64,000 nt of DNA from Minisyncoccia bacterium (lineage in GTDB: Bacteria; Patescibacteriota; Minisyncoccia; Phycocordibacterales; UBA918): positions 201,226-265,225 of the forward strand of contig JBKJIT010000004.1 in the NCBI GenBank assembly GCA_046598345.1, given 5' to 3'. Positions within the stretch are counted from its first letter, which is position 1. Each line of letters starts with the position of its first letter. The translations under genes were made by a program, and so were the position numbers. Below the pieces are notes generated by a model. The model made no database searches and was not told where the DNA came from. It was given only the letters and a program-made list of their open reading frames with translations. Below, piece by piece: positions 26,522 to 44,694 of this stretch.

Positions 26522-26548
26522 CTTGCGAAAGTATCCCACACTTTCTCA
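26522..26548 (+). repeat. palindromic element cttgcGAAAGTatcccacACTTTCtca, a member of a 4-locus repeat family
   Basis: About 88-115 bp upstream of copZ. Near-identical to 34241-34267. Related modules at 35394-35420 and 44670-44694. Confidence 0.6.
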
Positions 26549-26602
26549 TGCCTAGAACTTCCAGCAAAATTTAAACTTTGAGGAAGCTCTCTATTGATTA
26601 TA

Positions 26603-28984
26603 TCATCCTACTTTCGGCTTTGAAGCAGCCAATGCATCCTTCTCGCCTTTCTTAATCTGCTTCTCAATAGGCGGAACATACGAATGGAGTGTCATTGAAT
26701 TCAATACTACTGACACGGAACTAAACGCCATCGCAAATCCAGCAATTTCAGGGCGAAGTGTTGCTTGTGAAAGGTTAAAGAGCATTTGCCCAAATGAACC
26801 ATAATTAGCCTGCATAGCAACGACCCAACCTGCCGCAATACCGAACGAGGTTTGAGTAATGAGAAGGTGGGCTCCCGCAGCGACAGGAATCGCTGCCACG
26901 TTGTAGAAGAATGCCCAGAAAAGGTTTTGCCAGACCTTAATAATTGTCTTTCGTGAAAGCTGAATAGCTGTCGCAACATCACGAAGATCGTCCTTAACAA
27001 GAATGATTTCTCCCGTTTCAATTGCCACGTCGCTTCCTGAACCAATAGCAATACCCAAGTTTGCTTGTGCGAGCGCTGGTGAATCATTAATACCGTCTCC
27101 AACCATAGCTACGTTCTTGCCCTCCGCTTGAAGCTTCTTTACCATTGCTGCTTTGTCCTGCGGCAATACTTCTGAGAGCACGCGGGTGATACCAACTAGT
27201 TTTGCAATTGCCTGCGCAGTCTTCTCATTGTCACCAGTAATCATAATAACTTCCTTCCCCATGCGCTTAAATTCAGCGATCGCCTCCTTTGCGTATGGTT
27301 TTAGTGCGTCCGCCATTGCAATGAGTGCGACTGGCTTACCATCGATGAGAAGGAAGACTGTGGTTTTTGCCTGCTCTTGAAGTTCTCCGAGCTTAGTCTG
27401 GTAACCTTTTGTATCAATCTTCAAATTATCCATATAGGTAAGGTTTCCAATGATGACTTCCTTTACCTTTCCACTGTGAGGAATCATTGCCTTAATACCC
27501 ATACCCTGCATCGCTTCAAATTTCTTTAGCATAATAACCTCACCAAACGTCTTTCCATGCTCAATAACTGCTCGCGCAAGTGGATGCTCCGAACCCATTT
27601 CAGCAGAGGCTGCAAGGATCGCAGCTTCTTCGCTTTTTACACTCTGGTCAAGCATTACGAAGTCCGTGACAATTGGTTTACCTATTGTGAGGGTTCCGGT
27701 TTTATCGAGTGCAATCGTATTGACCTTGTATGCTTTCTCAAGCGCTTCTCCTCCCTTCAAGATGATGCCAAACTTCGCTGCGCGCCCAATACCGACTACG
27801 AGTGCGGTCGGCGTTGCGAGACCCATGGCGCACGGACATGAGATCACGAGTACCGCAATCATACGTAAAAGTCCCGCACGTACGGGTAGATCAGCAATAA
27901 ATACCCAGCCAATAAAGGTAAGTACTGAAAGCAGAACAACGGCTGGTACAAAGTACTCGCTCACTTTATCGACAAGATCCTGTACAGGAGCACGCTTCGC
28001 CTGCGCCTCCTCCACCATACGGATTATTTGATAGAGCAGTGTATCCTTACCAATTTTTACTGCCTTAAATTTGAAACGACCTTCTAGATTTACGGTCGCA
28101 CCGATCACATTGTCTCCAGCGATACGTTTAACTGGGAATGATTCTCCAGTAACTACTTTTTCATCAATATGTGTTTCCCCTTCAATAAGGACACCGTCAA
28201 CAGGAACTTTTTCTCCTGGCTTTACGATGATTATGTCTCCTTCAACGAGTTCTTCGAGTGGAATGGTGACTTCCTTTCCATCACGTTCAACATGCGCTTC
28301 TTTAGCTTCGAGCTTAAGAAGTTCCTTAATAGCACTAGACGCCCTTCCCTTTGCAACAACTTCTACGTAGCGTCCTAGAAGAATAAAGGCGATAAGCGCA
28401 GCTGAACTTTCCCAAAATGGATGGTCGATATTGAAGAATAAGAAGCCAATCGCACTGTAGAGGTACGCAGCTGTAGTACCCAATACCACGAGCACATCCA
28501 TGTTTGCAGCTCCAATTCTGACTGCAGACCACGCATTGCGATAGAATGGCCATCCGATAACAAACTGAATTGGTGTAGAAAGAACCCAGTAAATATAGTT
28601 GAGATCGATACCGAAAACCTGGTGTACGTGAGGCAGGTTGAACATGTGTACACCCATGTAATAGGCAATGATGGGCGCTGCAATTGCGAACGCTGCGATA
28701 ACGCGACGCTTTGCAAGCAACATTTCCTTTGCCTCAGCCTTCTCTTCGTCTTCAATCGAATTTGACTCCTCATCCGGACGAATCACATCGTATCCGAGCT
28801 TGTTCACAAATGCATCGATCTGGTTAATCGAAATCTTGGATTCATCAAACTCGAGTGCCACTTTCTGAGCACCATAGCTTGTATTCGACGCGACAACGCC
28901 TGCCTGTTTTAAAAGCAGTTTGTCGATCAGAATGGCGCAAGAGGCGCAATGCATTCCTTTTACTTTAAGTACAAGCTTTGTCAT
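26603..28984 (-). CDS. copA: copper-translocating P1B-type ATPase
   Basis: N-terminal HMA (GMHCASCA), the CPC transmembrane motif (ISCPCAMGLATP), DKTGTLT and GDGINDSPAL. Confidence 0.95.
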   Translation of the reverse strand: MTKLVLKVKGMHCASCAILIDKLLLKQAGVVASNTSYGAQKVALEFDESKISINQIDAFVNKLGYDVIRPDEESNSIEDEEKAEAKEMLLAKRRVIAAFAIAAPIIAYYMGVHMFNLPHVHQVFGIDLNYIYWVLSTPIQFVIGWPFYRNAWSAVRIGAANMDVLVVLGTTAAYLYSAIGFLFFNIDHPFWESSAALIAFILLGRYVEVVAKGRASSAIKELLKLEAKEAHVERDGKEVTIPLEELVEGDIIIVKPGEKVPVDGVLIEGETHIDEKVVTGESFPVKRIAGDNVIGATVNLEGRFKFKAVKIGKDTLLYQIIRMVEEAQAKRAPVQDLVDKVSEYFVPAVVLLSVLTFIGWVFIADLPVRAGLLRMIAVLVISCPCAMGLATPTALVVGIGRAAKFGIILKGGEALEKAYKVNTIALDKTGTLTIGKPIVTDFVMLDQSVKSEEAAILAASAEMGSEHPLARAVIEHGKTFGEVIMLKKFEAMQGMGIKAMIPHSGKVKEVIIGNLTYMDNLKIDTKGYQTKLGELQEQAKTTVFLLIDGKPVALIAMADALKPYAKEAIAEFKRMGKEVIMITGDNEKTAQAIAKLVGITRVLSEVLPQDKAAMVKKLQAEGKNVAMVGDGINDSPALAQANLGIAIGSGSDVAIETGEIILVKDDLRDVATAIQLSRKTIIKVWQNLFWAFFYNVAAIPVAAGAHLLITQTSFGIAAGWVVAMQANYGSFGQMLFNLSQATLRPEIAGFAMAFSSVSVVLNSMTLHSYVPPIEKQIKKGEKDALAASKPKVG

Positions 28985-29004
28985 GACGAATAATTACTAA
29001 TTGA

Positions 29005-29481
29005 TTAATTTACGAGGTTTGAAAGTGCATTCACAACAAATTTTCCAAGATGCTCAAAATGCCCACGAAAAATTCCCGTGTAAGGGCCCTCTTGAACAAC
29101 TCCTCCTGGGAGATTTCCTGTCGCTTTACTGTCACTGCAGGAGACTGAACAGTAGAATGGGAATTCACCCTCCTTTGAGGCTACAAAATCAACCTCAATG
29201 CGTCCGCTCGCCGGAAGTCTTTGAGAAATACCGAGTGCATCGATTGCAAACCCGTGGTCGAATGTGTCCTCATTAATTACGGTAATGTGCACACGATCAC
29301 ATTTGTTTACAGTGATGCTTTCTGGGTCGAATCTCCACTCAAGTTTCTTTGAAACCACAGTCACATCGCGTGCAATACCCATGTTAGCTGAGCAATCATC
29401 GGTATCAGTAGTGCGACTAAAGATAAACCCGCCTCCAAGAAGTACGACGAGCACGATCCCCATAATTACAAATTTGTTCAT
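29005..29481 (-). CDS. cupredoxin-like domain protein, membrane-anchored (non-canonical ligand set)
   Basis: Start MNKFVIMGIVLVVLL is adjacent to the stop of the upstream giant ORF. ...HITVINEDTFDHGFAI...GEFPFYCSVSCSD resembles the Cupredoxin_1 fold, but the His after the Cys is missing. Confidence 0.45.
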   Translation of the reverse strand: MNKFVIMGIVLVVLLGGGFIFSRTTDTDDCSANMGIARDVTVVSKKLEWRFDPESITVNKCDRVHITVINEDTFDHGFAIDALGISQRLPASGRIEVDFVASKEGEFPFYCSVSCSDSKATGNLPGGVVQEGPYTGIFRGHFEHLGKFVVNALSNLVN

Positions 29482-29482
29482 G

Positions 29483-32400
29483 TTATTTAATTTCAGCTTT
29501 AAGATACTTTTTAACGACGAGGACGAGTGGCACCGTGAGTAGTAGGGAGATGATAAGGAGAATCCACCACTTCTTGTTTGGTGACCATCCAAAATTGTCT
29601 ACACTAAATGATGGTGTGCCAACCTCAATATCGAAGGTTGCAATGCGTGGTGCACTCTCCCCCTTAAGGACAAACGAGACGAAAGCGCGATACTGTCCTT
29701 CAGTCGGAAACTGAGTGGGTACTGAATAGGTTCGTCCACCTGCGGCGACCTCATGCCCATCTGCTATGCCCCCGTGTGCATATGCTACCGGAATACTAAA
29801 TAATGAAGGGGGCAACATTGAGTGTAAGTGTGGCATCGATTCATTAAATCCGGGAGCACCTGGTACGTTCTGGTCTCCAGCGGGAACCGTAGTCGGCTCT
29901 GGAAATGTAGTGTTGCCTGGGTAGGTCACGAAACGTACAGAACCGTCACTTCTCACAAAGGTAATGGTAATCGGTCGGGGAATTACATCGTCGAGCACCA
30001 TTGCTGCACCTTGAGAATCTGAAAATGTAAGTGCTAATAGCGTGTTCTTTCCTACTTCCACAAACCTAGTGTCAGCACTGACTGTGTATTCTCTATCACT
30101 TACTTGATCAGTATAGGAATATGCAAGTGGTTCAACACTTCCTGGGGTAACTGGTCCACCGGACGTTGCACCAGCTGGTGGAGGTGTTGATCCTGAAGCG
30201 GTTGGCTTCACAGTCGCGCGAAATTCATCCCCAATTGCATTTCCATTCTGATCTTCAACACGGAAAGAGAACATCATGCCTGCATGGAGGTGCTCCGAAA
30301 TGTGACAATGTGCCATCCATACACCAGGATTACTCATCTCAACTAGAACATCGATGTACTCACTTGGTGGCACAAGCGCTGTGTCCTTCCACACCATGTT
30401 GTCATTCGGCACGCCATTATTTGAGAGAACTACAAACCGTTGCCCATGAAAGTGGATTGGATGCTGCATGACGTGCGCGGCCATCATGTCATTCGTAAAT
30501 CTGATCTTTACGAGTGAACCTTGTTTAAAGGTCCAGTCATTGATACCCATATTGATCTTTCCGGTTGTCTGATCAATGATATTCCACGCCACATTTTCAG
30601 TCGTGTTAACTTTGTCAGTATTTTGTGCATCATCCCATTGCATTGCCTCAATACCACTTTGCATCATTGGCATTGCAGTTCCAGCGCCATGCCCATGTGG
30701 CATTGATTCATCCACTGATGTGGCCGAAGCAGCTCCTCCGTGTGCGTGTGCGTTGTGATCTACAGCACCGGTAAGTGTGACTGTGAGCAGTGCGCGCTTT
30801 TCAGGTTCTTGTGCCAAATACGCCTGTCTATACTGATCGAAAAGTGCTTTCTCTTCAATATTACGCCTGGCCACATTGAAGTTTTCAACATACGATGGTA
30901 ATGCCTCTTCTTCCTGTGCATCAAATTGAGCTACCACAATTTGGCGATCTGGAAGCATGTTCAGGAGTTTGTAGAGACCCTCCTCCGGGAAATACACTTC
31001 GACAACCAGTCGTTCTGCTGGCGAAAGAAGTACACTTTCCTCATACACTTCTTGTTCAAGTCTTCCCCATTCAGCTCCTACTACTTTTATTTGCGCCCCA
31101 GGGATAGCGAGCTTATAGGTACGTGCATTAGAAACATTGGTAAGGAAGAATCGAACTACCTCTCCCGCCTTTACATCGAGAAGTGCATCGGACTCTCCAT
31201 TAACGAGGTACATATTTCCAAAGCGACCAAGTAGTGCGTGATCAACCGTGTCTTTGTAGAAGTCAGCAATTTGATTGTTCTCAATGAGCACATCGTCAAT
31301 CATGATTGGCACTTCACGGTTCACCTCCGACCAATAGTCAGGGTTGTTCGATGCAACAATATAGCTTCCGTAGAGACCCATTTCTTGGCCATAATCATCT
31401 CTCGTGTGTGGGTGATACCAGGCAACACCAGCGTCGGGGAATGAGAGCGTATAGGTGAATGATTCCCCAGGTTTTACGACGTTTTGGGAAAGATCAGGAG
31501 TACCATCCATGAGATTGTTTAGGCGGAGACCGTGTGAGTGGATGGTTTGATCAACATCAGTATTGTTCTTGAAATTAACAGTAATCACAGAACCTTCAGT
31601 TGTTTTAATGAAAGGCCCAGGGACTGAACCATTGTACGCAAGCATGCGAACCATTTTGTTACCAATCTCCTTCTTTACGTACCCTGCTGTGATGTTATAC
31701 GTATCTCCATTTGCAAGCTCCACAAAGAGCGGGCCAGTAGCTTCTGGAAGACCTGTAATGTCTTTTGTAAATGTAGGGCGCTCTAGTACTGGTGCTTGCG
31801 TAGTGGGTGTCGCGACGTGATGTGTTGTTGCTGCGGGATCAAACTGTTTAAGATAGAAGTTTCGTGGAAGGAAATAAATGAAGAGAATTGCCAAGAATAC
31901 AGAAATCGCAATAAGATAATTGCGCTGAATGCCCAGTATTTTTTCTTCGTATCCGCGAGCAACTGGATCTTTGTAGACACCCGTCTCGCCATATGCAACC
32001 TTAGCTTCTTCGGCTCTTCGAGTTGCTTCAAGTGCATCAATTTCTTCACGGGCATGCTTAAGGTCATAGGTTACCTCGAGCTCATCGACATTCATCATGG
32101 TTTCGACTTGACGTCGATCCCTTTCGAGACGATCTATTTGCGCTTCAAGTGCTGCAACCTTGTACGCAGGACTATTATGCATCTCTCGTCGTCGACGTGC
32201 GTACCACCACCAAATCGGAAGTAGCCACACAAACACGAGGAACCAACTTCCGAGTTCAAGTGGAAGCCCGAAAAGACCAGTACCTGCTTCAATTCCATGT
32301 AGATGAGCAACATTTGTGCCAAGCGTATCGTTCATTATGGCGTTCACCTTCCCTTCCTGCGTCACTGATTCAAGCGCACTATGAATGCCTGAGTTCACCC

Positions 32401-33232
32401 ACCACTTATGTGAGAAAAGTCCAAGCGTAAGAATAAACCCAGAAACGAACACCATAGCCCAACCCGTTGCACGTTCGAGCTTGTCCTTACGAGCCATGAG
32501 CCAGTTAAGACCGTTTACTCCAAGAATTGCGAGGAATGCAAGAAGAAGAAGTGGTAGCACACGTCCTACGGCGTGAATGAGGAACATCGTCCATCCATAA
32601 AGTACATCTCCACTCGAAGCTATTTCAATCAAAATAAGCGGCGTTGCTGGATGCGGGCAGCCAACCCCTACATTTCCTAAAAATGCGCCAAGAAAGAACG
32701 CCTTGAGAATTTCCTGTCTTTTTTGAATAAATGCCGGCGCCGCACCTGAATAGGTCGGCATATGAAAATTCATGAGTCCTATTTCCGAGAGCGCAAAAAG
32801 AAGCGCAAACGTACCGGCACCAAAATAAATCCAGTTCTTAATAGCTTCCAGATCAGCCCCAAGTGAACTTACTGCAATTCCACCGAGAAGAGCTGCTGCA
32901 ATACCATAGAGACTGAGTGTAAAAGCAACTCCAAAACCGAATGCGAGTGCCATACTAAGGCCCTTTATCATTCCCTTTCCCATAGAGAGCGGAACAATAA
33001 CGAACGCAAGCGGCAGTGTGCATGGCATTACGATCATTGTTAGACCTGTTGCAAATGAAAATAAATACCAGCCGATACTGCCATCTGGTACTGACGGAGC
33101 AATTACAAAAAGATAGAGAAGCCCGAAAATAATGGCTGCTGCCACAAAGAGTGTGCCACTGATGAGCCAACCCCGAAGCCCTGACATTCCGCCCGGGGAC
33201 GCTAGAGATGAGGATGGGGTTTCTGTTGTCAT
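29483..33232 (-). CDS. fusion protein: CcdA/DsbD-type thiol-disulfide transporter TM domain + three-domain multicopper oxidase (CueO-like, Met/His-rich insert) + C-terminal domain and TM anchor
   Basis: N-terminal ~300 aa is a polytopic TM domain with CcdA-like paired Cys motifs (MPCTLPLAFV; GVGCPHPATP). The MCO copper motifs are HSHGLRL, WYHPH, HPIHFHGQRF and HCHISEHLHAGM. The Met/His-rich run is DHNAHAHGG..MPHGHGAGTAMPMM. It ends with a terminal hydrophobic helix. Single uninterrupted 1249-codon ORF. Confidence 0.85.
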   Translation of the reverse strand: MTTETPSSSLASPGGMSGLRGWLISGTLFVAAAIIFGLLYLFVIAPSVPDGSIGWYLFSFATGLTMIVMPCTLPLAFVIVPLSMGKGMIKGLSMALAFGFGVAFTLSLYGIAAALLGGIAVSSLGADLEAIKNWIYFGAGTFALLFALSEIGLMNFHMPTYSGAAPAFIQKRQEILKAFFLGAFLGNVGVGCPHPATPLILIEIASSGDVLYGWTMFLIHAVGRVLPLLLLAFLAILGVNGLNWLMARKDKLERATGWAMVFVSGFILTLGLFSHKWWVNSGIHSALESVTQEGKVNAIMNDTLGTNVAHLHGIEAGTGLFGLPLELGSWFLVFVWLLPIWWWYARRRREMHNSPAYKVAALEAQIDRLERDRRQVETMMNVDELEVTYDLKHAREEIDALEATRRAEEAKVAYGETGVYKDPVARGYEEKILGIQRNYLIAISVFLAILFIYFLPRNFYLKQFDPAATTHHVATPTTQAPVLERPTFTKDITGLPEATGPLFVELANGDTYNITAGYVKKEIGNKMVRMLAYNGSVPGPFIKTTEGSVITVNFKNNTDVDQTIHSHGLRLNNLMDGTPDLSQNVVKPGESFTYTLSFPDAGVAWYHPHTRDDYGQEMGLYGSYIVASNNPDYWSEVNREVPIMIDDVLIENNQIADFYKDTVDHALLGRFGNMYLVNGESDALLDVKAGEVVRFFLTNVSNARTYKLAIPGAQIKVVGAEWGRLEQEVYEESVLLSPAERLVVEVYFPEEGLYKLLNMLPDRQIVVAQFDAQEEEALPSYVENFNVARRNIEEKALFDQYRQAYLAQEPEKRALLTVTLTGAVDHNAHAHGGAASATSVDESMPHGHGAGTAMPMMQSGIEAMQWDDAQNTDKVNTTENVAWNIIDQTTGKINMGINDWTFKQGSLVKIRFTNDMMAAHVMQHPIHFHGQRFVVLSNNGVPNDNMVWKDTALVPPSEYIDVLVEMSNPGVWMAHCHISEHLHAGMMFSFRVEDQNGNAIGDEFRATVKPTASGSTPPPAGATSGGPVTPGSVEPLAYSYTDQVSDREYTVSADTRFVEVGKNTLLALTFSDSQGAAMVLDDVIPRPITITFVRSDGSVRFVTYPGNTTFPEPTTVPAGDQNVPGAPGFNESMPHLHSMLPPSLFSIPVAYAHGGIADGHEVAAGGRTYSVPTQFPTEGQYRAFVSFVLKGESAPRIATFDIEVGTPSFSVDNFGWSPNKKWWILLIISLLLTVPLVLVVKKYLKAEIK

Positions 33233-33236
33233 ACGC

Positions 33237-33497: not shown

Positions 33498-33580
33498 GCA
33501 AAATGCTCTTAGGTGATTACTAGTTCATTGTAACAACTCATTCTTTTAGTTTTGTCGAGTTGTACCCAGAAAATCTGAAG

Positions 33581-34153
33581 CTAGCAAGAAATTTCTTGAT
33601 ATCTAAAACAATCTTTGATGTGATCGTTTACCATTCCTACAGCTTGCATGTGCGCGTACCAAACTGTCGGTCCCAAGAACTTAAAACCTCGCTTTTTAAG
33701 ATCTTTAGACATTGCTATAGCCAGATCGGTGATCACAGGAATGTTCTTCCCCGTCTTTCTTTTTCCATCAATTGGTTTATCTGCAACCCAATTCCACATG
33801 TACGTACTAAAACTTCCAAACTCTTTCTGAACCTTAAGAAATGCCTGAGCATTTGTAATCGTCGAAGTAATTTTAAGACGATTTCTAATTACAGATGCCT
33901 CATTACAGAGCCTCTCAGCGTCTTGTCCAGTCATTTTTGCTACTTTCTTTGGCTCAAAATTTTTGAATGCTTTCCTATACCCTTCTCGCTTATTTAAAAT
34001 GATTCTCCAGGAAAGCCCTGCTTGGGCACTTTCGAGCACTATAAATTCAAAGAGTTTTTGATCGTCGTATATTGGTACTCCCCATTCTTCATCATGGTAC
34101 TTAACATAGAGATCGTCACCTCCTTCTGTCCATTTGCATCTTTTCATATGCAA
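33581..34153 (-). CDS. tag: DNA-3-methyladenine glycosylase I
   Basis: MKRCKWTEGGDDLYVKYHDEEWGVP...LESAQAGLSW is a Tag hallmark. Confidence 0.9.
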   Translation of the reverse strand: MHMKRCKWTEGGDDLYVKYHDEEWGVPIYDDQKLFEFIVLESAQAGLSWRIILNKREGYRKAFKNFEPKKVAKMTGQDAERLCNEASVIRNRLKITSTITNAQAFLKVQKEFGSFSTYMWNWVADKPIDGKRKTGKNIPVITDLAIAMSKDLKKRGFKFLGPTVWYAHMQAVGMVNDHIKDCFRYQEISC

Positions 34154-34335
34154 AGAGTACCAATTAACTGGTCCGTCTTACAGACGCTGTACACCCTGTC
34201 GATATTTCTTTTCGTCTCCTCAAGGAGTATCTGACAGGGTCTTGCGAAAGTCTCCCAGACTTTCTCACCCCATTCAGTATCGTGATAACGAATATACAGC
34301 TCATCTCCGTTTTTTACCCAGTCGCACCGTCTCAT
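34144..34335 (-). pseudogene. truncated, degenerate second copy of the tag N-terminus
   Basis: MRRCDWVKNGDELYIRYHDTEWGE parallels the Tag N-terminus. It then degenerates, with an apparent ~10-aa deletion, and stops after 63 aa. The repeat element 34241-34267 lies inside it. Confidence 0.45.
34241..34267 (+). repeat. second copy of the palindromic element cttgcGAAAGTctcccagACTTTCtca
   Basis: 25 of 27 identical to 26522-26548. It lies 88-114 bp upstream of the tag start. Confidence 0.6.
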
Positions 34336-34468
34336 ATTTTTATGTGTATCAGTCCTTGAAACTTCATGCGTGAGCTATATACCTTGTCGCTATTATTTTT
34401 GATTGCAGAGATTCTAGCTGAAAAAGTCCTGCAAGATGAAAATACAAAATCTTGTACAAAAATGTGTT

Positions 34469-34933
34469 TTAGCGAGTCACGACCATCTCTTCATCTTCAG
34501 TGTACGCGAATGGAGCGCAAACACTGATGCGACCCCCTGGTGTCTTAATAATCCTGTATGAAGTTCCTTGGTCAGTAGACTCAGCAGGATCACTTGGAAT
34601 GTTAGTCAAATACTTCTCGTCGGTAATCAAATCGTCAATTCTAATACCATCACAAGAAAAACCTACTTTACAAATATCAAGTCCATCTTCAATGCACGAT
34701 GCCCCAGTAGGAATATCTCCTGGGTATGTACCTTGATTATCAATAGCATATTGGTGCACAGCATCAAGAATTGATCGAATATCACTTCTTCTTTGGGCAT
34801 CTTGTGCCTCACTAAATTGCTTTCCAGGATTAATCGCAACAATCACTACGGCAGCTAGAATTGCAAGAATTGCAATAACAAGAAGTACTTCAATAAGAGT
34901 GAAACCCTGTGTGTTGTTATTTCCTTTAAGCAT
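34469..34933 (-). CDS. type IV pilin / pseudopilin (prepilin-type N-terminal methylation domain)
   Basis: TQGFTLIEVLLVIAILAILAAVV is a class III signal with G|FTLIE. 5 Cys in the globular part. Confidence 0.8.
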   Translation of the reverse strand: MLKGNNNTQGFTLIEVLLVIAILAILAAVVIVAINPGKQFSEAQDAQRRSDIRSILDAVHQYAIDNQGTYPGDIPTGASCIEDGLDICKVGFSCDGIRIDDLITDEKYLTNIPSDPAESTDQGTSYRIIKTPGGRISVCAPFAYTEDEEMVVTR

Positions 34934-35217: not shown

Positions 35218-35291
35218 GGGCCCGTAGCTCAGTTGGCTAGAGCGTCTGTTTTGCACTCAGAAGGTCGCAGGTTCAATTCCTGTCGGGTCCA
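35218..35291 (+). tRNA. tRNA-Ala (anticodon TGC)
   Basis: Manual cloverleaf: acceptor GGGCCCG/CGGGTCC with the G3:U70 Ala identity pair, D-arm GCTC/GAGC, anticodon loop TTTGCAC, T-arm GCAGG-TTCAATT-CCTGT. No CCA encoded. Confidence 0.88.
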
Positions 35292-35352
35292 CTCTGAAAT
35301 AAAACAAGTAGGTACGTAGCTAAGGCTTAACCTATTATATAGTTGGCTATTC

Positions 35353-35381
35353 AAAATCCGTCTCCCAGACGGATTTTGCTA
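35353..35381 (+). terminator. hairpin aaaatccgtct-ccc-agacggatttt after tRNA-Ala
   Basis: Perfect 11-bp stem with 3-nt loop, followed by gctattttg. Confidence 0.5.
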
Positions 35382-35393
35382 TTTTGCGCAGAG

Positions 35394-35460
35394 AAGGTAG
35401 AAAAGTATGGGATATTTTTCTAAATCCTTGAGCATCCGCCAGCTGGCTGAGTGCGAAAAG
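35394..35460 (-). repeat. composite repeat (module 2 then module 1, inverted relative to the copy at 44637-44694)
   Basis: Reverse complement of 35426-35460 = ttttcgcactcagccagctggcggatgctcaagg, compared with 44637-44669 = tttcgcactccgccagctagcggatgctctagg. 35394-35420 is related to the GAAAGT...ACTTTC palindromic module. Confidence 0.55.
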
Positions 35461-35632
35461 TGTACTGACCATGTTAATGCTGTCGAGGGCACAATTTAAT
35501 TGCCCAAAGCTGGCATTACTATCGTATATCCACGCACTGTGAAGAAATAAAAAATTGATTAGAGTGATACACTTTACTAATGATATTGGTGAACGTCCTA
35601 ATGAATAACATTTAATAAAATTTAAATACATT

Positions 35633-36976: not shown

Positions 36977-36985
36977 GTAGATTCA

Positions 36986-38392: not shown

Positions 38393-38568
38393 TTAAAACC
38401 TTAGCTCGCAGGACCCTCGTCGCAAGCGGATGGCGCATTCTTATCGTTCGTTAGCAAATCTTCTTCTACAGTCACACTAAAATATCATACAATCTGAACC
38501 GTTCATGTAATGCAGAATTCCTGTGAGCTGCCTATCTATGGCATCAGCTTGATATTCTGTGGCATACT

Positions 38569-39057
38569 GTGCCTATGTCACCTCATGGTATCGATAAAGT
38601 GATTAGTGCAGTGGGGTCAGTCTCATCCCTCCTCATCCATACTTGTCTTTTTGCTAGTGCTTTTCTCCTTGCGCTTTTTGGTGTTGTGGAATGGAGTATT
38701 ATGCTCCTTATTCTAACAACCGTTGTATCACTGGAGGCAATTTATCTTGCAATTTTTATTCAAATGAGTGTTACAAGGCAAGCTAAAGATCTTGAAAGTG
38801 TTAGTGAAGATGTTGAGGATATTCAAGAAGACATCGAAGAAATTAGTCACGATGTGGATGAGATTCAAAAAGACGTTGATGAGATTCAGGAGGACGTAGA
38901 CGAAATTCAAGAGGATGTTGAGGAGATTCAGGAAGATGTGGAAGAAATCACAGAAGAACCCGAAATCCACAATCAAAGTTCGCAAACTGTCTCTATAGAT
39001 GAACTGACATCAGATCTTCGAAAAATTCTTGCGAACTTAGAGCGACTCCAAAAATAA
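38569..39057 (+). CDS. small 2-TM membrane protein with acidic heptad-repeat tail (DUF1003-like)
   Basis: Two hydrophobic helices, then 7 tandem 21-bp (7-aa) repeats DV(D/E)EIQE at ~38806-38952. Confidence 0.5.
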   Translation: MPMSPHGIDKVISAVGSVSSLLIHTCLFASAFLLALFGVVEWSIMLLILTTVVSLEAIYLAIFIQMSVTRQAKDLESVSEDVEDIQEDIEEISHDVDEIQKDVDEIQEDVDEIQEDVEEIQEDVEEITEEPEIHNQSSQTVSIDELTSDLRKILANLERLQK

Positions 39058-39063
39058 CAAACA

Positions 39064-39098
39064 CCCTGTTACGCAGGGTGTTTGTTATTTTTGTGTAA
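39064..39098. terminator. bidirectional rho-independent terminator between convergent genes
   Basis: 13-bp stem aacaaacaccctg/cagggtgtttgtt flanked by an A-run and a T-run (aaaaataacaaac....gttatttttgtg). Confidence 0.75.
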
Positions 39099-39133
39099 GT
39101 GCAAACCTCTTGTGACGAGAACAGCACCAATGA

Positions 39134-42022
39134 TTATTGGTTTAATATTGTGCGTGTTTTTGGCCCTACGGTACCTGTGGGCTCAATTACATGCTTTAGT
39201 TGCAGGAATTTGACGGCAGATTTAGTTAGGTCTCCAAAGTAACCGGTTATGTCTCCATTGTAAACCTCAAGTGAGGTAAGTAGCTTCTGAAGCTCCGACA
39301 CCTCGGTTCCGCTAGAGCCAAGTTGTAGATCTTTTGTAAAAAAGTATTTAGAAGCACCCATGACTTCTGAAGATACTGTTTGTAATACGGTTAAATCTAC
39401 TTCATTACTCAATAAACCGTTCGGAAGCTGTGCAGAGATTTTGTGGAGCCCTATACTTGTTACTGGAACATAAAAGGTGAGTTGGTTTTCAGAAGGAGTG
39501 TTAATAAGAGCTGGTCGATTCTTATCGAACATGATGTAGGTAACACCTCTCAAATTTATGCCTTCTACGGTAATTAATCTGCCGATTTCAGCTGAACTTG
39601 CGGAAATTGATCCAATATATGGAGCGTCGCTGCACTGATCTAGGAGGATTTTAATACTGGAAATATCAGAAGCAGTAATGGTAAGACTTGCATTTAGATC
39701 AGCTTTGTCATCGAAACCAGAATTGGAAGAAATAAGCCCAGACTTTGATTTAACATATTCAACATCTTTTGCGTCAATAGAACCATCTCCGTTTACATCG
39801 GCATTTGAACACGTTGGTGCAGCAGTTCCTGAAGTACTTACAGTGTAAGTGAGAACCGTACAATTATTCGTTTCACTTGATTCACTCACAATCCCTGAAG
39901 AATCAACACAGTGCCTCACTTGCAGAGTCCCTGATTTAGTAAGTGCTAAACTAGCTGAAGTATCAAGGAACCGTCCTCCTGCAGCTGTTGTTCCTCGAGG
40001 ACTTGTAGTATTCAATGCTTCCCATGGACTTATGGTGTCGTAGCGGTAAGAAAAACTATCGACATACATTGACGGTGCATTTACTGTACTGCTATTTTTT
40101 ACTTCAGCAGTAAATGAAAGAGTCTGCCCCACTGTATAAACTGAGCTATTTCCTGAAACGAGAGTAAATGCTTGGCTGATAAGATCGGGTAATGCTGCGT
40201 TAGTTTGCGTAACCGATACAGAAACTGTTGCAGATTTAGAAACTGAGCCAGCTGAATTTGAACAAGTAATAGTATAGGTTGTCGTTTCTGTAGGATTTAC
40301 AATCGCTGTCGCAGAAGTCTTGCCAGAATCCCATCCAACATTCGTGGCGCTACAATAATCGGCACCAGTGGACGAAAGTGTTAGCGAACTACTTTGCCCG
40401 ACAGTGATGCTTGACGGTGTTGCTGCAAAATTTGTGATTATTGGTAGCGTCGATAAAGTATTTGGATTAACACTATACACGACTATAGTGCAATTATTGG
40501 TTTCGTTGGATTCGCTTACAATCCCAGAAGAATCAACGCAATGTTTTACTTCCAATAATCCTGCCTGAGTAAGCATGAGTGATGATGAGGTATCGAGGAA
40601 CCTACCCCCCGCAGCAGTGGTTCCGCGAGGACTTGTGGTATTGAGGGTAATCCAAGAACCGGACGACCCGTAGCGGTACGAGAATGTATCAACATACATT
40701 GATGGAGACTGGGTAGTGCTATTGTTTTTTACTTCTGCCGAAAATGAGATAGTTTGTCCGACAGTGAGCACTGGACTGGGGCCCGAGCTAAGACCAAAGG
40801 TTTGGCTAATGAGATCTGGCAATCCGGTAGTAACTTCAGTTACGGGTGCACACGCATTGAGCCACGAGAGGATTGAGCTTGCTTCGGTCCGTCTTGCTCC
40901 AGTGCCAACCGCTCCAGTTGTGAGCGAACTCCCTGTAAGCCCTGTGAGATACCTTGTGATTATAAGTCCGTCTGTGAGTGAAGAAATTTTGTCATCACCG
41001 TCTGCGTCGTAATCATGAGTTGCAATAAAGTTTTCAATGGCCGTTGAAGTTATGCGCGTAGCACCTGCCCCAATCACACCAGTAATGAGCTGGCTCCCTC
41101 GGTAGGAGTTAAGGTACCGAGTAATTAACAAGCCATCTGTAAGCGCATCTTTTTTTCCGTTACCATCGATGTCGAGGTTACAAGCTTCTACAGTTGAATC
41201 TGAATCCAATGAAGGTGTACCCCCAATTGTGAAAGGCCCAGTTTGGCCATCACCAGTTCCACCTCTATGGATTCCTGTGCTGTAATCGTAGACAGTCAGG
41301 GCGTATGCTCCATTTTTTAAGTTCGGATCATGGGCCCAAACAAAACTACCTGTATTTGAGATGCCTTGAGCAAGATATTTTGCTACTTGGCCGTTTTTTT
41401 CTCCTGATGCAAAAAAAAGTGCAATACCTATTTTATGATCGCCTAATCCTGACGAGGTCCATCTTATAGTTGCAATTGGTGAATTACCCGTTCCTTTTGT
41501 ACCACTATTATCTAAACTATACCCTGCTTGTGGATAGGTTACAGTAATAGCTGGCGTTTCAGCAACTGGAAGAGGTATGTCTGACTCGCATGTGTAAAAT
41601 GCATTTAGTTTTGCACGTGTACTTGGGCCCGTCTTCCCTGTTCCATAGAGAAGGCCATACGGTGCAAGGATTTCGCTCGCATACTTTTGTTGGAAGCCCG
41701 TTACGGCAGCCGCAGTTGCCTCGTCGTAGGATGTGGAATCATTGGAGTTAAAACCTTGAAGCTTAAGTGCTGTCTTTAATGCAATCACTTCAGCGCCGGA
41801 ATCACCCACATTCAAGTTATATGTAAACTCATGACAAAACGATCCACTGGATGTCTCACCAGTAGTTCTGCCAGTCATAGTATTAACTTGTGCCTGAAGT
41901 TGCGTAATGAGAGCAAGCAACTGCTGAATTTGTGCAAGCATTTCGTCAATCGTTGCCGCCTTCGAAACAATGGGTGTAAATAGTGCGAATACAAGCAAAG
42001 TGCTAACAAGGAGTTTTTTCAT
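39134..42022 (-). CDS. large secreted surface protein: signal peptide, PG_binding_1-like domains at both ends, dockerin/EF-hand-like Ca-binding repeats, two CARDB-like domains
   Basis: MKKLLVSTLLVFALFTPIVSKA signal. PG-binding-like VGDSGAEVIALKTALKLQGF... and C-terminal LQLGSSGTEVSELQKLL... Asp/Gly-rich repeats DIDGNGKKDALTDGLLITRYL and DYDADGDDKISSLTDGLIITRYL. Two ~115-aa paralogous segments ending ...SESNETNNC / ...SESSETNNC (CARDB E-x-NE-x-NN signature). Confidence 0.7.
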   Translation of the reverse strand: MKKLLVSTLLVFALFTPIVSKAATIDEMLAQIQQLLALITQLQAQVNTMTGRTTGETSSGSFCHEFTYNLNVGDSGAEVIALKTALKLQGFNSNDSTSYDEATAAAVTGFQQKYASEILAPYGLLYGTGKTGPSTRAKLNAFYTCESDIPLPVAETPAITVTYPQAGYSLDNSGTKGTGNSPIATIRWTSSGLGDHKIGIALFFASGEKNGQVAKYLAQGISNTGSFVWAHDPNLKNGAYALTVYDYSTGIHRGGTGDGQTGPFTIGGTPSLDSDSTVEACNLDIDGNGKKDALTDGLLITRYLNSYRGSQLITGVIGAGATRITSTAIENFIATHDYDADGDDKISSLTDGLIITRYLTGLTGSSLTTGAVGTGARRTEASSILSWLNACAPVTEVTTGLPDLISQTFGLSSGPSPVLTVGQTISFSAEVKNNSTTQSPSMYVDTFSYRYGSSGSWITLNTTSPRGTTAAGGRFLDTSSSLMLTQAGLLEVKHCVDSSGIVSESNETNNCTIVVYSVNPNTLSTLPIITNFAATPSSITVGQSSSLTLSSTGADYCSATNVGWDSGKTSATAIVNPTETTTYTITCSNSAGSVSKSATVSVSVTQTNAALPDLISQAFTLVSGNSSVYTVGQTLSFTAEVKNSSTVNAPSMYVDSFSYRYDTISPWEALNTTSPRGTTAAGGRFLDTSASLALTKSGTLQVRHCVDSSGIVSESSETNNCTVLTYTVSTSGTAAPTCSNADVNGDGSIDAKDVEYVKSKSGLISSNSGFDDKADLNASLTITASDISSIKILLDQCSDAPYIGSISASSAEIGRLITVEGINLRGVTYIMFDKNRPALINTPSENQLTFYVPVTSIGLHKISAQLPNGLLSNEVDLTVLQTVSSEVMGASKYFFTKDLQLGSSGTEVSELQKLLTSLEVYNGDITGYFGDLTKSAVKFLQLKHVIEPTGTVGPKTRTILNQ

Positions 42023-42101
42023 TAAAAGTGATTAGATTTATATACTTTCAGCATATCACCTTCATGATAAAAATATGAAGTTCTCCCCTATTCCAAGGTG
42101 A

Positions 42102-44117
42102 TTACCTGTTTAAGAGGGCTCGAGTTTGTGCACCTATAATTCCAACCGCAGGCAGCTGAAAGGCTCCCTGGAAGTGAAGCGCAGCGAGTTTAGTAGCCTC
42201 ACCAAAGAATCCGGTTGGCTCTCCAGAGAAAAATCCTTTTTGAGTAAGTACTTTCTGAAGTTCAGTAACTTCAGTACCACTGTCTCCAAATTGTAAAGTT
42301 TTAGTAAAATTATATTTGTACGTTCCGAGTACCTGACCGGGTGTCACAATCATAAATATGGTATTGCAGTTATTCACCTCATTTGATTCAAGCGTTACAT
42401 TGGTTGTGTCTACACAGTGCATCACTTCTAGTACGCCACTTTCCGATAGATAAATTTGCCCAGAAATGTCCATGAAACGACCTGATTCTGCTGTGGTCCC
42501 GTGCATGCCGGTGTTATTAACTGTTGTCCAAGGAGTTCCTGATGCATACCTGTAATAAAATGTATCAATGTAACCACTCGGAGCCTGTGCATATATTGAG
42601 TCATTTTTAACTTCTGCAGTGAAATTAACTGATTGTCCTTTTACCAAACTACCGGAAGACAACCTGAGTGCTTGACTGATAAGGTCTGGTCTTGTTGTGG
42701 TTCCGCCAGGTTGTACAACAACTGTTACAGAAGATGAAGCTGAGCCGTAAGAGTTAAAGCAAGTGACGCTATAAGTAGTTGTCTGCTTGGGATAGAAAAA
42801 CTGAACTGCAGTCGTAGCGTTCGTTGCATTTGCTGTATTCTTACATGCAGTGGCATTCGAACTTGAATACTTTAGGGCAGTATAATTTCCTGCTGTAATT
42901 AAATTTGGTGAAGCTGAAAGCGTCACTGTAGGATATGAGGGTTGTGGTACCGGTTGATTAATGCCGCGAATCATTTGATAGTTAGTAGCAAATTCTCCGA
43001 TAGGAAGGGGCAGATATTGATATCCAAGCGTTGTTGTAGTGCTGAAGTTAAGACTAGTCAATTCAGCTCTTATTGACTCCGTAAAAGCACCATTCAATTT
43101 CATAACTCCGTTAAAATTGAACGAACGTGTTGTTCCTGCGGCAATTTTATACAAATTCACTGGCTCTTCTAAAGAAGAAGATTCTAAAGATGCACTGACG
43201 ACAGAAATATATCCAGGAACTATTCCATCAGGTTTTTTAGCAGTAAAAGTAAGTCCCAAGCCTGTACTCGTCGACATGGCTGTAAACGTTGAATTTCGTC
43301 CAATGTACACATCCACTACTGGAGCGGTTACCTCAAACTCAATCGAATATACACCATGCACTTCTCCCGAATCTCCTATGGGTCTACTCTCTGCACTTGA
43401 ATCTGCAAAATCAATAATTGGATCTGGGATGGGAATTATTTTTACTGTAACAATATTACTCTGTCCATTTTCATTTGTTATATAAAGAGGATACGTGTTC
43501 CCAGGCGTAAGAGAAAATGGAACTGTAATCATAAGTTGAGTGTCTGTCGCCCACTTTGCTTTTGCTTGCATCCCTCCAATGGAAGCAGAAATTGCATCAA
43601 TAGAATTAATTCCAAGATACTTTCCATTAATAACCAAGTCCCCTGATGCATATGCTTCAAAACTTTGCGCTGCATAAGCTTCTGTTGATGCGATATACGG
43701 TTTGTATGAAAGTCCTGATGTTTGGGCAAGATTGAAATAATCGTTGCTATAGTCACACAATGGTTTAGAGGAAACAGGATCAATAGTCCCGTTATCGCAG
43801 ACGGCAACTTTATATTTACCAGGAGCAACAGTTGCAGGAACAGCAAGTGAATCAATTTGTTTTTTCTTTACATTGGTAAAGAGTGGAATTTTTGACACGA
43901 CACTCGCATTCATTGGGCTGTACAAAAAGGCAACCGGTTGTTTGGGAACATGGGTAGCACTCCAGGTAAAAGGAAGAAGATTTACATCTTTTCTTCCTAA
44001 AGAAATGGTCTCACCACCGTTAGGGGTAAGAATAGTAATTGAGGGAGTCTGCGCGGATGAGACTGCCGGCATAAGTAAACCAAGCGCAAATATAAAGCTT
44101 AGAAGCAGTTTTTTCAT
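42102..44117 (-). CDS. paralogous secreted surface protein with one CARDB-like domain and C-terminal PG_binding_1-like domain
   Basis: Signal MKKLLLSFIFALGLLMPAVSSA. CARDB-like segment ...LESNEVNNC. C-terminal LQFGDSGTEVTELQKVL... Its upstream region is homologous to the upstream region of the 39134-42022 gene (shared agcatatcacc...tatgaag...cccc). Confidence 0.7.
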   Translation of the reverse strand: MKKLLLSFIFALGLLMPAVSSAQTPSITILTPNGGETISLGRKDVNLLPFTWSATHVPKQPVAFLYSPMNASVVSKIPLFTNVKKKQIDSLAVPATVAPGKYKVAVCDNGTIDPVSSKPLCDYSNDYFNLAQTSGLSYKPYIASTEAYAAQSFEAYASGDLVINGKYLGINSIDAISASIGGMQAKAKWATDTQLMITVPFSLTPGNTYPLYITNENGQSNIVTVKIIPIPDPIIDFADSSAESRPIGDSGEVHGVYSIEFEVTAPVVDVYIGRNSTFTAMSTSTGLGLTFTAKKPDGIVPGYISVVSASLESSSLEEPVNLYKIAAGTTRSFNFNGVMKLNGAFTESIRAELTSLNFSTTTTLGYQYLPLPIGEFATNYQMIRGINQPVPQPSYPTVTLSASPNLITAGNYTALKYSSSNATACKNTANATNATTAVQFFYPKQTTTYSVTCFNSYGSASSSVTVVVQPGGTTTRPDLISQALRLSSGSLVKGQSVNFTAEVKNDSIYAQAPSGYIDTFYYRYASGTPWTTVNNTGMHGTTAESGRFMDISGQIYLSESGVLEVMHCVDTTNVTLESNEVNNCNTIFMIVTPGQVLGTYKYNFTKTLQFGDSGTEVTELQKVLTQKGFFSGEPTGFFGEATKLAALHFQGAFQLPAVGIIGAQTRALLNR

Positions 44118-44278
44118 CAGAATGAGTTTAGATTAATATGCACTTAGCATATCACCGTTCTCACAATATTATGAAGATGTCCCCAATGTCAGCCAATTTC
44201 AGCCCGATCTGATGGATTTGCTGGCTCTCTTTACTTACATTTAACTAAAAACAAATGCTTTTTGTTACACTTTCCTCG

Positions 44279-44451
44279 TTCATCGGGCTGTAAAAAAGTT
44301 TTCAACCCTCGTCTCGAAAGTAATATCCATATAAATATGATATTCTTTCTCGACTTCGGGCTGGATAAAGCATTTATACATCTCCTTTTCATTCGGTCAC
44401 AGTATCAAATAATGTATTTGTGATACTATGACACTCATTCATCGGGCTGTA
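44279..44451 (+). repeat. three direct copies of (c)(a/g)TTCATCGGGCTGTA-type motif upstream of tRNA-Pro (44279-44293, 44352-44365, 44436-44451); inverted CAGCCCGA at 44697-44704
   Basis: Read directly. Copies 1 and 3 are 15/16 identical. Copy 3 runs into a tRNA-like fragment. Confidence 0.55.
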
Positions 44452-44481
44452 GTATACCGGTAGTACGCGTCCATGTCGGGG
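44441..44481 (+). other. degenerate partial copy of the tRNA-Pro 5' half (acceptor/D-arm/anticodon-stem 5' side)
   Basis: gggctgtaGTATAccGGTAGTACGcgTCCATG compared with the tRNA cggggtataGTATAgtGGTAGTACGtaTCCATG, located 14 bp upstream of the intact gene. Confidence 0.45.
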
Positions 44482-44494
44482 AAAAAATAATTGT

Positions 44495-44565
44495 CGGGGT
44501 ATAGTATAGTGGTAGTACGTATCCATGGGGTGGATATAGTCTGAGTTCGATTCTCGGTACCCCGA
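44495..44565 (+). tRNA. tRNA-Pro (anticodon GGG)
   Basis: Manual fold: acceptor CGGGGTA/TACCCCG, D-arm GTAT/GTAC, anticodon stem TATCC/GGATA with loop ATGGGGT (U33, GGG, G37), T-arm CTGAG-TTCGATT-CTCGG, discriminator A. Confidence 0.82.
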
Positions 44566-44578
44566 CAATTAATTTTTC

Positions 44579-44599
44579 CAGAAGCATGAGATGCTTCTG
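44579..44599 (+). other. perfect 9-bp hairpin cagaagcat-gag-atgcttctg downstream of tRNA-Pro
   Basis: Read directly; preceded by aattttt. Confidence 0.4.
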
Positions 44600-44636
44600 A
44601 TGTAGACCGGTTCACATCCTACAGATGCTGTATACC

Positions 44637-44694
44637 TTTCGCACTCCGCCAGCTAGCGGATGCTCTAGGTCTTGCGAAGCTCTGCTTCTCACCC
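44637..44694 (+). repeat. composite repeat (module 1 at 44637-44669 plus module 2 at 44670-44694), same family as 35394-35460, 26522-26548, 34241-34267
   Basis: See the paired alignment given for 35394-35460. Module 2 tcttgcgaagctctgcttctcaccc resembles ggtcttgcgaaagtctcccagactttctcaccc at 34238-34270. Confidence 0.55.

Follow-up and report, generated by a model that had tools for sequence, protein, structure and literature searches.

What are the short repeats that recur at four loci of a Minisyncoccia bacterium, two of them immediately downstream of tRNA genes? The window analysed here is a stretch of 64,000 nucleotides (GenBank assembly GCA_046598345.1, contig JBKJIT010000004.1, positions 201,226 to 265,225), for which an initial annotation had described two short modules and had offered a miniature repeat element, a shared operator or integration-site scars as explanations. 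We find that both modules are parts of a single longer unit, called element E below, which measures 77-102 nt in the window. E is phylum-wide in Patescibacteria (the candidate phyla radiation, CPR), multi-copy and clustered; its 5' boundary depends on a preceding G, two target bases are lost in about ten cases where an intact target copy lies nearby, and one orthologous site is empty in relatives. We consider it likely that E is a structured repeat that is or was mobile, mobilised in trans, and that it also acts as an RNA-level module.

The observations behind the two modules held up. Module 2 (CTTGCGAAAGTNTCCCANACTTTCTCA) sits on the plus strand at exactly 26522-26548 and 34241-34267, with 25 of 27 positions identical, and module 1 occurs at 35426-35458(-) and 44637-44669(+), with 31 of 33 identical; neither had a match in 100 dinucleotide-preserving shuffles of the window. 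Diverged copies of module 2 directly follow module 1, at 35394-35425(-) and 44670-44694(+), and the gene context described for these loci (copZ, tag with a degenerate tag copy, tRNA-Ala and tRNA-Pro) is borne out. The division into two modules, in contrast, is only apparent: module 2 is a hairpin of E, P1, and module 1 is a lineage-specific tip of a second hairpin, P2. The strand first quoted has to be reverse-complemented to be informative, and module 2 then reads as the hairpin GAGAAAGU-N-UGGGA-N-ACUUUCGC. In order, E consists of G^UGAGAAAGUC-UGGGA-GACUUUCGCAAG (P1; the caret marks the junction with the preceding sequence, here and below), the variable hairpin P2, G-N-ACAG, and P3. P1 has 10 bp with one conserved A.G mismatch and a GGG triloop, and CGCAAG comes next; P2 often has a GAG/CGA internal loop. 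P3, a third conserved hairpin that had gone unremarked, has 5 bp and an invariant GUA triloop, and lies at 34174-34186, 44615-44627 and 26447-26463 in the window. Loci outside the window (L numbers below) have copies of 71-99 nt, giving an overall range of 71-102 nt.

We aligned 87 outside copies with window copies B and D (alignment A3) and used the alignment as the basis of a covariance model, R1; copies A and C were outside its training set. With filters off, R1 found exactly four sites in the whole window at an E-value <=5e-4 (95, 41, 41 and 22 bits), and the four loci are thus copies of one E family, two intact (B and D) and two decayed (A and C) (Table 1). In copy B, the invariant G at 34268 precedes P1 (34267-34243), P2, GUACAG and P3 (34186-34174), and the copy alone folds into the three consensus hairpins (z=-3.65). 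Copy D, whose P2 tip is module 1 and whose P3 runs from 44627 to 44615, also folds alone into the consensus hairpins. Copy A has an intact P1 (26522-26548), a decayed P2 and a still recognisable ACAG and P3 (26463-26447); the base preceding it is A, not G. In copy C the base of P2 is eroded, as is P3, and P1 has changed in a compensatory manner (G-C to A-U at two pairs, and one mismatch to G-C). Folded alone, A and C are both eroded. The P2 tip shared by C and D had 0 matches in a scan of the metagenome collection, and a tip found nowhere else points to a recent common source of these two copies in this lineage. Beyond A-D and a weak fifth site, nothing in the window scored below E=0.1. We estimate that E occurs about once every 16 kb, both here and in the vicinity of other copies.

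Table 1. Coordinates of E copies, neighbouring genes, tRNA pieces and hairpins in the window (bits and E-values are those of covariance model R1)
Feature	Position	Strand	Support
Copy A, decayed	26447-26548	-	41 bits, E=6e-9
Copy B, canonical full length	34174-34267	-	95 bits, E=3e-23
Copy C, decayed	35398-35481	+	22 bits, E=5e-4
Copy D, full length, shortened P1 (GAGAAGC-aga-GCUUCGC)	44615-44691	-	41 bits, E=5e-9
Weak fifth model site, upstream of tag'	34357-34498	-	14 bits, E=0.085
Probable decayed older copy (3' half of P2, AUAG, degenerate P3)	34357-34425	-	weak
copZ (HMA domain)	26219-26434	-	
tag	33581-34153	-	
tag', diverged 5' tag fragment (MRRCDWVKNGDELYIRYHDTEWG), ends exactly at 5' end of copy B	34268-34335	-	translation; Pfam Adenine_glyco positions 1-23
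tRNA-Ala(UGC)	35218-35292	+	
Hairpin behind tRNA-Ala, 12-bp stem then T-run, terminator-like	35352-35378	+	
5' half of old tRNA-Pro (CGGGCTGTAGTATACCGGTAGTACGCGTCCATG)	44443-44475	+	near-identical to relative L128
tRNA-Pro(GGG), intact	44495-44566	+	
Perfect 8-bp hairpin between intact tRNA-Pro cassette and old tRNA piece, not terminator-like	44580-44598	+	
Right flank of D, old tRNA-Pro (anticodon-stem 3' strand, variable loop, T-stem 5' strand)	44599-44614	+	
Left flank of D, last 15 nt of old tRNA-Pro (CCCGGCAGCCCGACA; T-stem 3' and acceptor 3' strands)	44692-44706	+	alignment A4

By the criterion of compensatory substitution, E is a structured single-stranded nucleic-acid element. The RNAalifold consensus of A3 has 22 pairs, 14 of which show compensatory double changes. 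Standard pairs form in 97.6% of alignment cells, versus 48-50% when partners are slid by 1-3 columns, and cells with double changes number 299, versus 30-78 for slid partners. The covariation score is 0.439, compared with 0.14 in shuffles (0/500 reach the observed value) and <=0.10 for slid partners. All seven pairs of P2 and all five of P3 covary, and neither hairpin was in the pattern used for retrieval; P1 shows exchanges despite its near-invariance (G-C/A-U and C-G/G-C/U-A). Pairing that is maintained by compensatory changes means that a single strand must fold. On the strand given here, G.U and U.G pairs number 43 versus 12 A.C and C.A pairs (counts that are not phylogenetically independent), an excess which suggests that the folding strand is the one given, minus for A, B and D and plus for C; thermodynamics alone does not distinguish the two strands of E. 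Eight orthologous copies from eight species keep the fold, with compensatory changes in P2, within a conserved non-coding region of ~250 nt, and this context recurs in 29 loci.

The ~250-nt region (L120 1290-1590(-), L107, L077, L063, L027, L094, L090, L020, L285 4040-4330 and ~20 more) is very similar between species. E sits there in the loop of a long hairpin, which is followed by a T-run. The region had no Rfam match, and an ARAGORN search for tmRNA was negative whether or not E was removed. A divergently oriented gene for a large serine recombinase is found 240-610 nt upstream in five loci.

Further copies with a fixed 5' boundary occur outside the window. We scanned one genome per species (GTDB representatives) with a degenerate P1 pattern, TRRRAAAGTNTGGGANAYTTTYSYA, and obtained at least 120 loci, versus ~2 expected by chance by our own estimate; metagenome contigs gave at least 120 further loci. 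Only four of the genome matches listed were without the rest of E. Among the matches listed, nearly all are metagenome-assembled genomes (MAGs) of Patescibacteria, often with several contigs or copies per genome, and their titles name Saccharibacteria, Kaiserbacteria, Paceibacteria, Taylorbacteria, Nomurabacteria, Doudnabacteria, Roizmanbacteria and Minisyncoccia. Because all outside copies were retrieved through P1, variants with another 5' hairpin are under-sampled. R1 found 143 copies at an E-value <=0.01 in 716 kb of CPR loci, ~43 of them beyond the seeds, and 0 in 446 kb of unrelated viral DNA; viral-contig collections searched with three patterns yielded no true copy. E occurs singly, in tandem pairs, in inverted pairs and in clusters, one of which has six copies in both orientations within 1.6 kb, among several 5S rRNA fragments (L054 600-2260). 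The initial annotation had found no annotated feature class to fit these repeats, and no Rfam 15 family matches E. At gathering thresholds, the 4227 models of that release (HEARO, group I/II introns, small ribozymes, attC-like motifs, tmRNA and RNase P among them) hit only tRNA, rRNA and two group I introns outside E in the window and 18 loci, and at E-values up to 5 nothing overlaps the E copy within L120 900-2000. Searches of the literature by sequence and by topic returned no description of E.

We note several other features of these loci. The MAG containing L054 is labelled Acidimicrobiales and is possibly mis-binned. A second element type shares only P1 and the preceding G with E and goes on as AGGGCGGAGGACGACGGTCCGAGCC... 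and an A/T-rich hairpin. It lies at the same tRNA D-arm position in L007 2119-2300, L023, L076, L093 6400-6509(-) and L111 (4650-4841(-) and 120-312(-)); the L093 copy stands after a tRNA 5' fragment (GGCAGAG^) and before an intact tRNA-Thr. An unrelated short CPR repeat (GTCATTCCTGCGAAGGCAGGAATCCAG-like, 'ggattcccgc...gaatgac') is present in L065 3040-3100, L093 6250-6300 and L111 4270-4720. A conserved, apparently non-coding stretch (GGTCACGAGTTGCTAA...) adjoins tRNA-Ala in L125 2520-2720 and L129 2650-2810. Intact tRNAs downstream of E have group I introns in the anticodon loop in L002 2158-2422(-) and L003 7319-7578(+).

The anatomy of the junctions indicates how E relates to its sites. 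The preceding base is G in 87/87 outside copies, position -2 is G or A, and -3 is mostly G; downstream of the same 87 copies there is no consensus. The alignment of copies that had been proposed for defining boundaries thus places the 5' end at a fixed point after G. In the A3 consensus the 5' end, TGAGAAAGTC, and the 3' end, ...CTGTAAGAAG, are unrelated, and there are no terminal inverted repeats, the 5' end being dissimilar to the reverse-complemented 3' end, CTTCTTACAG. E is mostly intergenic, and the orientation classes of flanking genes (23, 16, 14 and 8) reveal no orientation rule. Distances to genes range from 5 to >1000 nt, and the neighbours are unrelated housekeeping genes.

In ~20 of ~200 evaluable loci, a sequence that ends at the 5' end of E (X') duplicates 20-88 nt of sequence lying nearby (X), which continues into an intact gene. 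The targets include RNA genes, namely tRNA-fMet (GCGGGG^), other tRNAs (GGTAGAG^, GGCTGAG^) and 5S rRNA in both orientations, and protein genes, namely rnhB (DEVG^), msrA (FAG^), a GH1 glycosidase (FYWG^), a P-loop kinase (GKG^), tag, and comM, which is hit at its 3' end with E antisense. Where P3 is followed by a copy of 7-15 nt of the downstream target (Y'), this copy begins two bases past the junction, which implies that E replaced two target bases. This 2-nt skip is seen in about ten of the 12-14 duplication cases examined, L215 and L054 included, the rest having no recognisable Y'. There is no target-site duplication; flank repeats, where present, are 20-88 nt long, spacer included. The partial copy hit by E usually lies upstream of the intact gene and lies downstream in a mirror case (L299), and the intact gene is nested within the E-hit copy in the 5S rRNA of L047 and at window copy D. 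Units of E, spacer and X are iterated two or three times in L017, L262 and L288, and 5'-truncated E copies occur in the L058 group and as a relic in the window.

Copy D provides the comparison with an empty site. Two relatives, L127 and L128, have a pterin dehydratase 82% identical to that of the window and, 7 nt past its stop, an uninterrupted tRNA-Pro on the opposite strand; no E is present at the site orthologous to copy D. In the window this resident tRNA-Pro is split into three pieces, with D inside its T-loop. The left flank of D is 15/15 identical to the tRNA of another relative, L129, and ends at the G before D, and between the two flanks 3-4 T-loop bases are missing. An insert that carries the intact tRNA-Pro parts the old 5' half from the other pieces, and the order past D is an old tRNA piece, a hairpin, a complete and more diverged tRNA-Pro, and the old tRNA 5' half. 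The proximity to tRNA genes that had suggested integration scars is partly borne out at D, in the sense that E lies within an old tRNA gene; a tRNA 3' end duplicated in the manner of an integrase att site is not seen. Copy C merely lies behind the tRNA-Ala terminator, 150 nt upstream of a solute-binding-protein gene (35633). The perfect hairpins reported near the two tRNA genes are both present, but neither belongs to the repeat family; the one at 44580-44598 scored only 10.5 bits (E=0.7) against R1.

The tRNA-Pro locus has further peculiarities. The complete tRNA-Pro and the hairpin at 44580-44598 are nested at the anticodon-loop position of the old tRNA-Pro, and the same nesting is found in L047 1607-2100, where an intact 5S rRNA lies inside the E-hit copy. 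Both intact tRNA genes of the window are without an encoded CCA and are embedded in 22-23-nt inverted repeats (35202-35224/35284-35306 and 44480-44501/44558-44579), which lengthen the acceptor stem by ~15 bp of leader-trailer pairing; such repeats are not obvious at the tRNA-Pro of L127 and L128. The sequence CTC(A/G)TTCATYGGGCTGTA, the leader and first 9 nt of the old tRNA-Pro, occurs three times (43896-43922, 44262-44292 and 44425-44451). Its second copy is a truncated fragment with no E adjoining, and the first lies within a PG_binding_1 open reading frame (ORF) and may be a chance match. The contig containing L127 (CAZCWH010000041.1) ends 38 nt into tRNA-Pro, which hints that this locus breaks assemblies.

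Copy B shows the same type of arrangement at a protein gene. The tag' peptide, which ends ...GAATGGGG^ at copy B, is a diverged copy of the Tag N-terminus, MKRCKWTEGGDDLYVKYHDEEWG, and the intact tag begins 26 nt past B. The tag' ORF (34144-34335(-), 63 codons) is open through the entire copy B, and its stop TGA (34146-34144) overlaps the tag ATG (34147-34145) as ATGA, a translational-coupling layout. The relative L125 has the same tag-thioredoxin-oxidase synteny and also tag'-E-tag. Its junction falls after the first Trp codon (MIKKRCVW^) and its E has a different P2 type, which points either to more than one event at this locus or to an older insertion that was remodelled later. Upstream of tag', a relic near 34357-34425 lies at a 39-nt spacing from the tag' ATG, equal to the spacing of copy B from the tag ATG, and is a possible older E unit. 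We also note that an analogous upstream ORF in L286 stops 3 nt before the start codon, and that those in L125 and L017 stop inside P2.

Copy A fills most of the spacer from the stop of copA (26603) to the start of copZ (26434), ending 12 nt (8 nt for the model match) short of the latter. A promoter-like site at 26624-26597(-), at the end of copA, would place copy A in the 5' untranslated region (UTR) of copZ.

Under the explanation that we prefer, a trans-acting enzyme that recognises the P1 end would mobilise, or would have mobilised, E as a single-stranded nucleic acid, by analogy with REP/REPIN or IS200/IS605-derived elements, which rely on a transposase encoded elsewhere. An insertion in a needed gene would persist only if accompanied by a short, partial duplication through which an intact gene is restored beside E, and this would yield the tag'-E-tag and tRNA-Pro'-E-tRNA-Pro layouts of the window. 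The new joint lies 7-15 nt from E, which suggests a rearrangement provoked by the structure. A resident E would be co-transcribed with its neighbours, in the 5' UTRs of copZ and tag and at the 3' end of the pterin-4a operon. Its fold would be kept by selection, and E probably also has a role as an RNA-level module, in stability, processing or protein binding.

Several points weigh against this explanation. The case for mobility is made from one empty-site comparison and from insertion anatomy as read in the sequences. No transposase, reverse transcriptase or integrase is encoded in the 64-kb window, where Y1_Tnp had 0 matches among 45 ORFs, and none of the three is consistently near E, within 1.5-2.5 kb, in ~240 loci. 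Clustering of the neighbouring ORFs gave housekeeping families only, plus a large serine recombinase. With no such enzyme gene linked to E, the mobilising enzyme is something that we purely infer. We know of no transposition chemistry that accounts for the partial gene duplications beside E, and their reading as rescue by rearrangement is likewise one that we infer. The near-invariance of P1 across classes and the compensatory evolution of the orthologues would fit a host RNA at least equally well, and in the alignment this near-invariance is partly imposed by the search pattern. Finally, true E copies occur in two MAGs labelled Acidimicrobiales and Azotimanducaceae; either these MAGs are mis-binned, or the E family is not strictly CPR.

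The first alternative to be weighed is that E is chiefly a host-functional non-coding RNA module, its spread being secondary and the gene fragments being by-products of rearrangement at a structure that is hard to replicate. It could then serve as a platform for protein binding or processing, stabilise RNA, or act as a multi-copy small RNA, and such a role is compatible with a mobile origin. The invariant loops and junctions (GGG, GUA, CGCAAG, ACAG) and the strong covariation argue for it, as do the orthologues in eight species, which hold the fold by compensatory changes in a conserved region whose context recurs, and the location of the window copies in likely UTRs. A host RNA would less readily explain why orientation and distance to genes are not fixed, why copies lie in dead gene fragments and antisense to tRNA and 5S, why decayed copies such as A and C are tolerated, and why relatives have an empty site; moreover, E copies have no promoter or terminator pattern of their own. 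As the main account of E we regard it as unlikely, though it deserves to be kept in view.

Could E instead be the scaffold of a guide RNA, with X' as guide and Y' as second arm, serving an RNA-guided nuclease, recombinase or repressor? Such a reading, modelled on the omega-RNA of IscB/IsrB or on a bridge RNA with a 2-nt core, would account for X' copying 20-80 nt of a nearby gene in ~20 loci, for the 7-15-nt copy of sequence two bases further on that follows the 3' end, and for a length close to that of a single-guide RNA (sgRNA) scaffold. It is nevertheless improbable: >80% of copies have no detectable cognate nearby, X' reaches 56-88 nt and takes in promoters and spacers, X' and Y' share the target's sense while E can be antisense to the gene, and the mirror arrangement of L299 occurs. 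No Cas9, IscB, TnpB or IS110-type gene is linked to E in the loci examined, and HEARO and the other guide families of Rfam do not match.

We give slightly less credence still, and in absolute terms very little, to the view that the repeats are att scars of integrase-mediated genomic islands at tRNA genes. Two copies do lie near tRNA genes, tRNA-Pro fragments flank D, and a large serine recombinase is found within 1.5 kb of E in 7 of ~240 loci. However, A, B and most outside copies have no tRNA nearby, and the inserted DNA is the 80-100-nt E alone (77 nt for D), free of cargo, with no integrase in 64 kb. Large serine recombinases cut with a 2-nt stagger; serine recombination would keep on both sides the two target bases that are lost at E. 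The seven recombinase loci represent three independent contexts, not clearly above chance, and the recombinase is only a lead as a partner of E.

A very small intron-like element, spliced from tRNA, rRNA and mRNA, is more doubtful again and in our view highly improbable. The sites do fall at conserved tRNA positions (D-arm, T-loop), in 5S rRNA and in coding motifs (DEVG^, EWG^, GKG^, FYWG^), and the 5' end of E reads G^UGAG. Yet in most cases examined what E interrupts is only a truncated fragment with an intact gene next to it, and where this does not hold (the 5S rRNA of L047 and the resident tRNA-Pro at D), an intact gene copy nested inside disrupts the sequence further. In addition, two exon bases have been lost, E lies antisense to the gene in several insertions, and most copies are intergenic.

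The least probable reading, at the edge of what we would entertain, takes module 2 as a palindromic operator through which one transcription factor would act on copZ and tag, among other genes. P1 does form an imperfect palindrome of 25 bp, and it stands 88 nt upstream of the ORF start at copZ and at tag alike, a coincidence that follows from element length and short linkers, but P1 always has P2 and P3 behind it, whose sequences vary freely while pairing is kept (12/12 pairs covary, which argues against a protein-binding palindrome), E copies lie in every orientation to genes, also behind operons and within gene, tRNA and 5S fragments, and the genes concerned are functionally unrelated.

Other candidates were rejected outright. 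The hexamer spacings of module 2 are unfit for a sigma-54 or MerR/CueR-type promoter or operator. A coding origin was considered since several copies keep the 'EKVWETFAR' frame open across P1, which is due to the GG^U junction; the covariation shows structure, not coding constraint, and in loci outside the window the ORFs that run across E are short and spurious. On inspection of motifs, E does not fit hammerhead, pistol, hatchet, HDV, an RNase P P4 mimic or a T-box-like RNA, and Rfam was empty to E<=5. Mismatches in the flank copies are not A-specific, which excludes the template and variable repeats of a diversity-generating retroelement. A polar mechanism that always duplicates the 5' flank is contradicted by L299, and a general model of a nested intact gene fits L047 and window copy D only. 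For a cis-regulatory RNA (riboswitch or leader), E has no fixed orientation or position and no coherent gene set.

Among described repeats, E is nearest to the REP/BIME/REPIN elements of proteobacteria and the Rickettsia palindromic elements (RPE), yet it is distinct from both. Like REP, BIME and REPIN, E is short, structured, multi-copy and mostly intergenic, and occurs singly or as tandem or inverted pairs and clusters; conserved bases stand 5' of the hairpin (in E the invariant G), and copies are often co-transcribed at operon ends. Neither type has a gene of its own, and a trans-acting enzyme is presumed (for REP a RAYT, of the IS200/IS605-type Y1 class, whose gene usually has REPs on its flanks). 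Unlike REP, E is 2-3x longer (71-102 nt), has three distinct hairpins rather than one imperfect palindrome of 20-40 nt with a conserved 5' tetranucleotide, and has invariant triloops and junctions. It is conserved across classes of a phylum whereas REP is species-specific, and it inserts within genes, with two bases lost and partial gene duplications alongside. No RAYT/Y1 transposase was found within 1.5-2.5 kb of E in ~240 loci, a scan that was local rather than genome-wide. RPE elements resemble E as ~100-nt structured repeats of reduced genomes, found in protein genes, RNA genes and intergenic DNA, with a mobilising enzyme that is not known. They are, however, in-frame in functional genes and translated, whereas E-hit copies are dead fragments beside an intact copy, and they come from a different phylum and have no sequence or structural similarity to E.

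The proposal of a miniature repeat element holds in so far as the loci belong to a phylum-wide dispersed family; the classical MITE (miniature inverted-repeat transposable element), though, is a different matter. E shares with Correia/NEMIS, ERIC, RUP and BOX a small size, non-autonomy, dispersal, and the capacity to be co-transcribed and to affect neighbouring transcripts. The two defining marks of a MITE, terminal inverted repeats and a target-site duplication, are both absent from E, which is therefore not a MITE. In R2-type target-primed reverse transcription, 2 bp of target are lost. On this a possible likeness of E to R2-type or SINE-like RNAs would depend, along with the structured RNA-like unit, rRNA and tRNA targets, and 5'-truncated copies; in contrast to these, both ends of E are precise and no reverse transcriptase is linked. 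The omega-RNAs and sgRNAs of IscB, IsrB and Cas9 and the IS110 bridge RNA have in common with E the scaffold size, host-derived sequence before it and a 2-nt unpaired 'core', whereas the flanks of E have the same sense as the target, are variable (up to 88 nt) and are absent from most copies, with no effector gene near E and no Rfam match.

We propose, tentatively and at somewhat less than even confidence, that E represents an undescribed class, either mobile with its own insertion chemistry or a new conserved non-coding RNA module carried by many transcripts of these reduced genomes. Jointly with that proposal, and held no more firmly, the mobile version would have a chemistry of its own: a strict G at -1, two bases lost, the gene regenerated by a partial duplication, and a joint 7-15 nt from E. 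If E is mobile, G-specific insertion that deletes 2 nt would point to a new enzyme, whereas an RNA module would imply a new RNA-binding partner shared by CPR bacteria. Were the class indeed undescribed, the enzyme or protein that partners E would add a new part to CPR biology.

Patescibacteria make up a large and poorly understood part of bacterial diversity, and their ~1 Mb genomes are thought to be poor in repetitive or mobile DNA. Extrapolated, the density seen here would give tens of E copies per genome. A three-hairpin fold is kept across classes though absent from catalogues of RNA families. E accounts for pseudo-fragments, puzzling otherwise, that tRNA, 5S rRNA and protein genes have next to their intact copies, it may account for some assembly breaks, and it could mark CPR contigs in binning.

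Besides the genes already named, copA and a multicopper oxidase were called; the rest is housekeeping, plus a DUF5671 protein and a type IV pilin. The homologues of the window Tag and pterin dehydratase are named Minisyncoccia, Pacebacteria or Patescibacteria. Three further repeats in the window were noted: (i) 21-nt tandem repeats at 38806-38948, inside a DUF948/LPP-like ORF; (ii) an internal duplication at 39858-40012/40488-40642, with 630-nt spacing, in a 962-aa PG_binding_1 ORF; and (iii) adjacent PG_binding_1 genes with similar starts and upstream regions, at 42002-42091/44097-44187.

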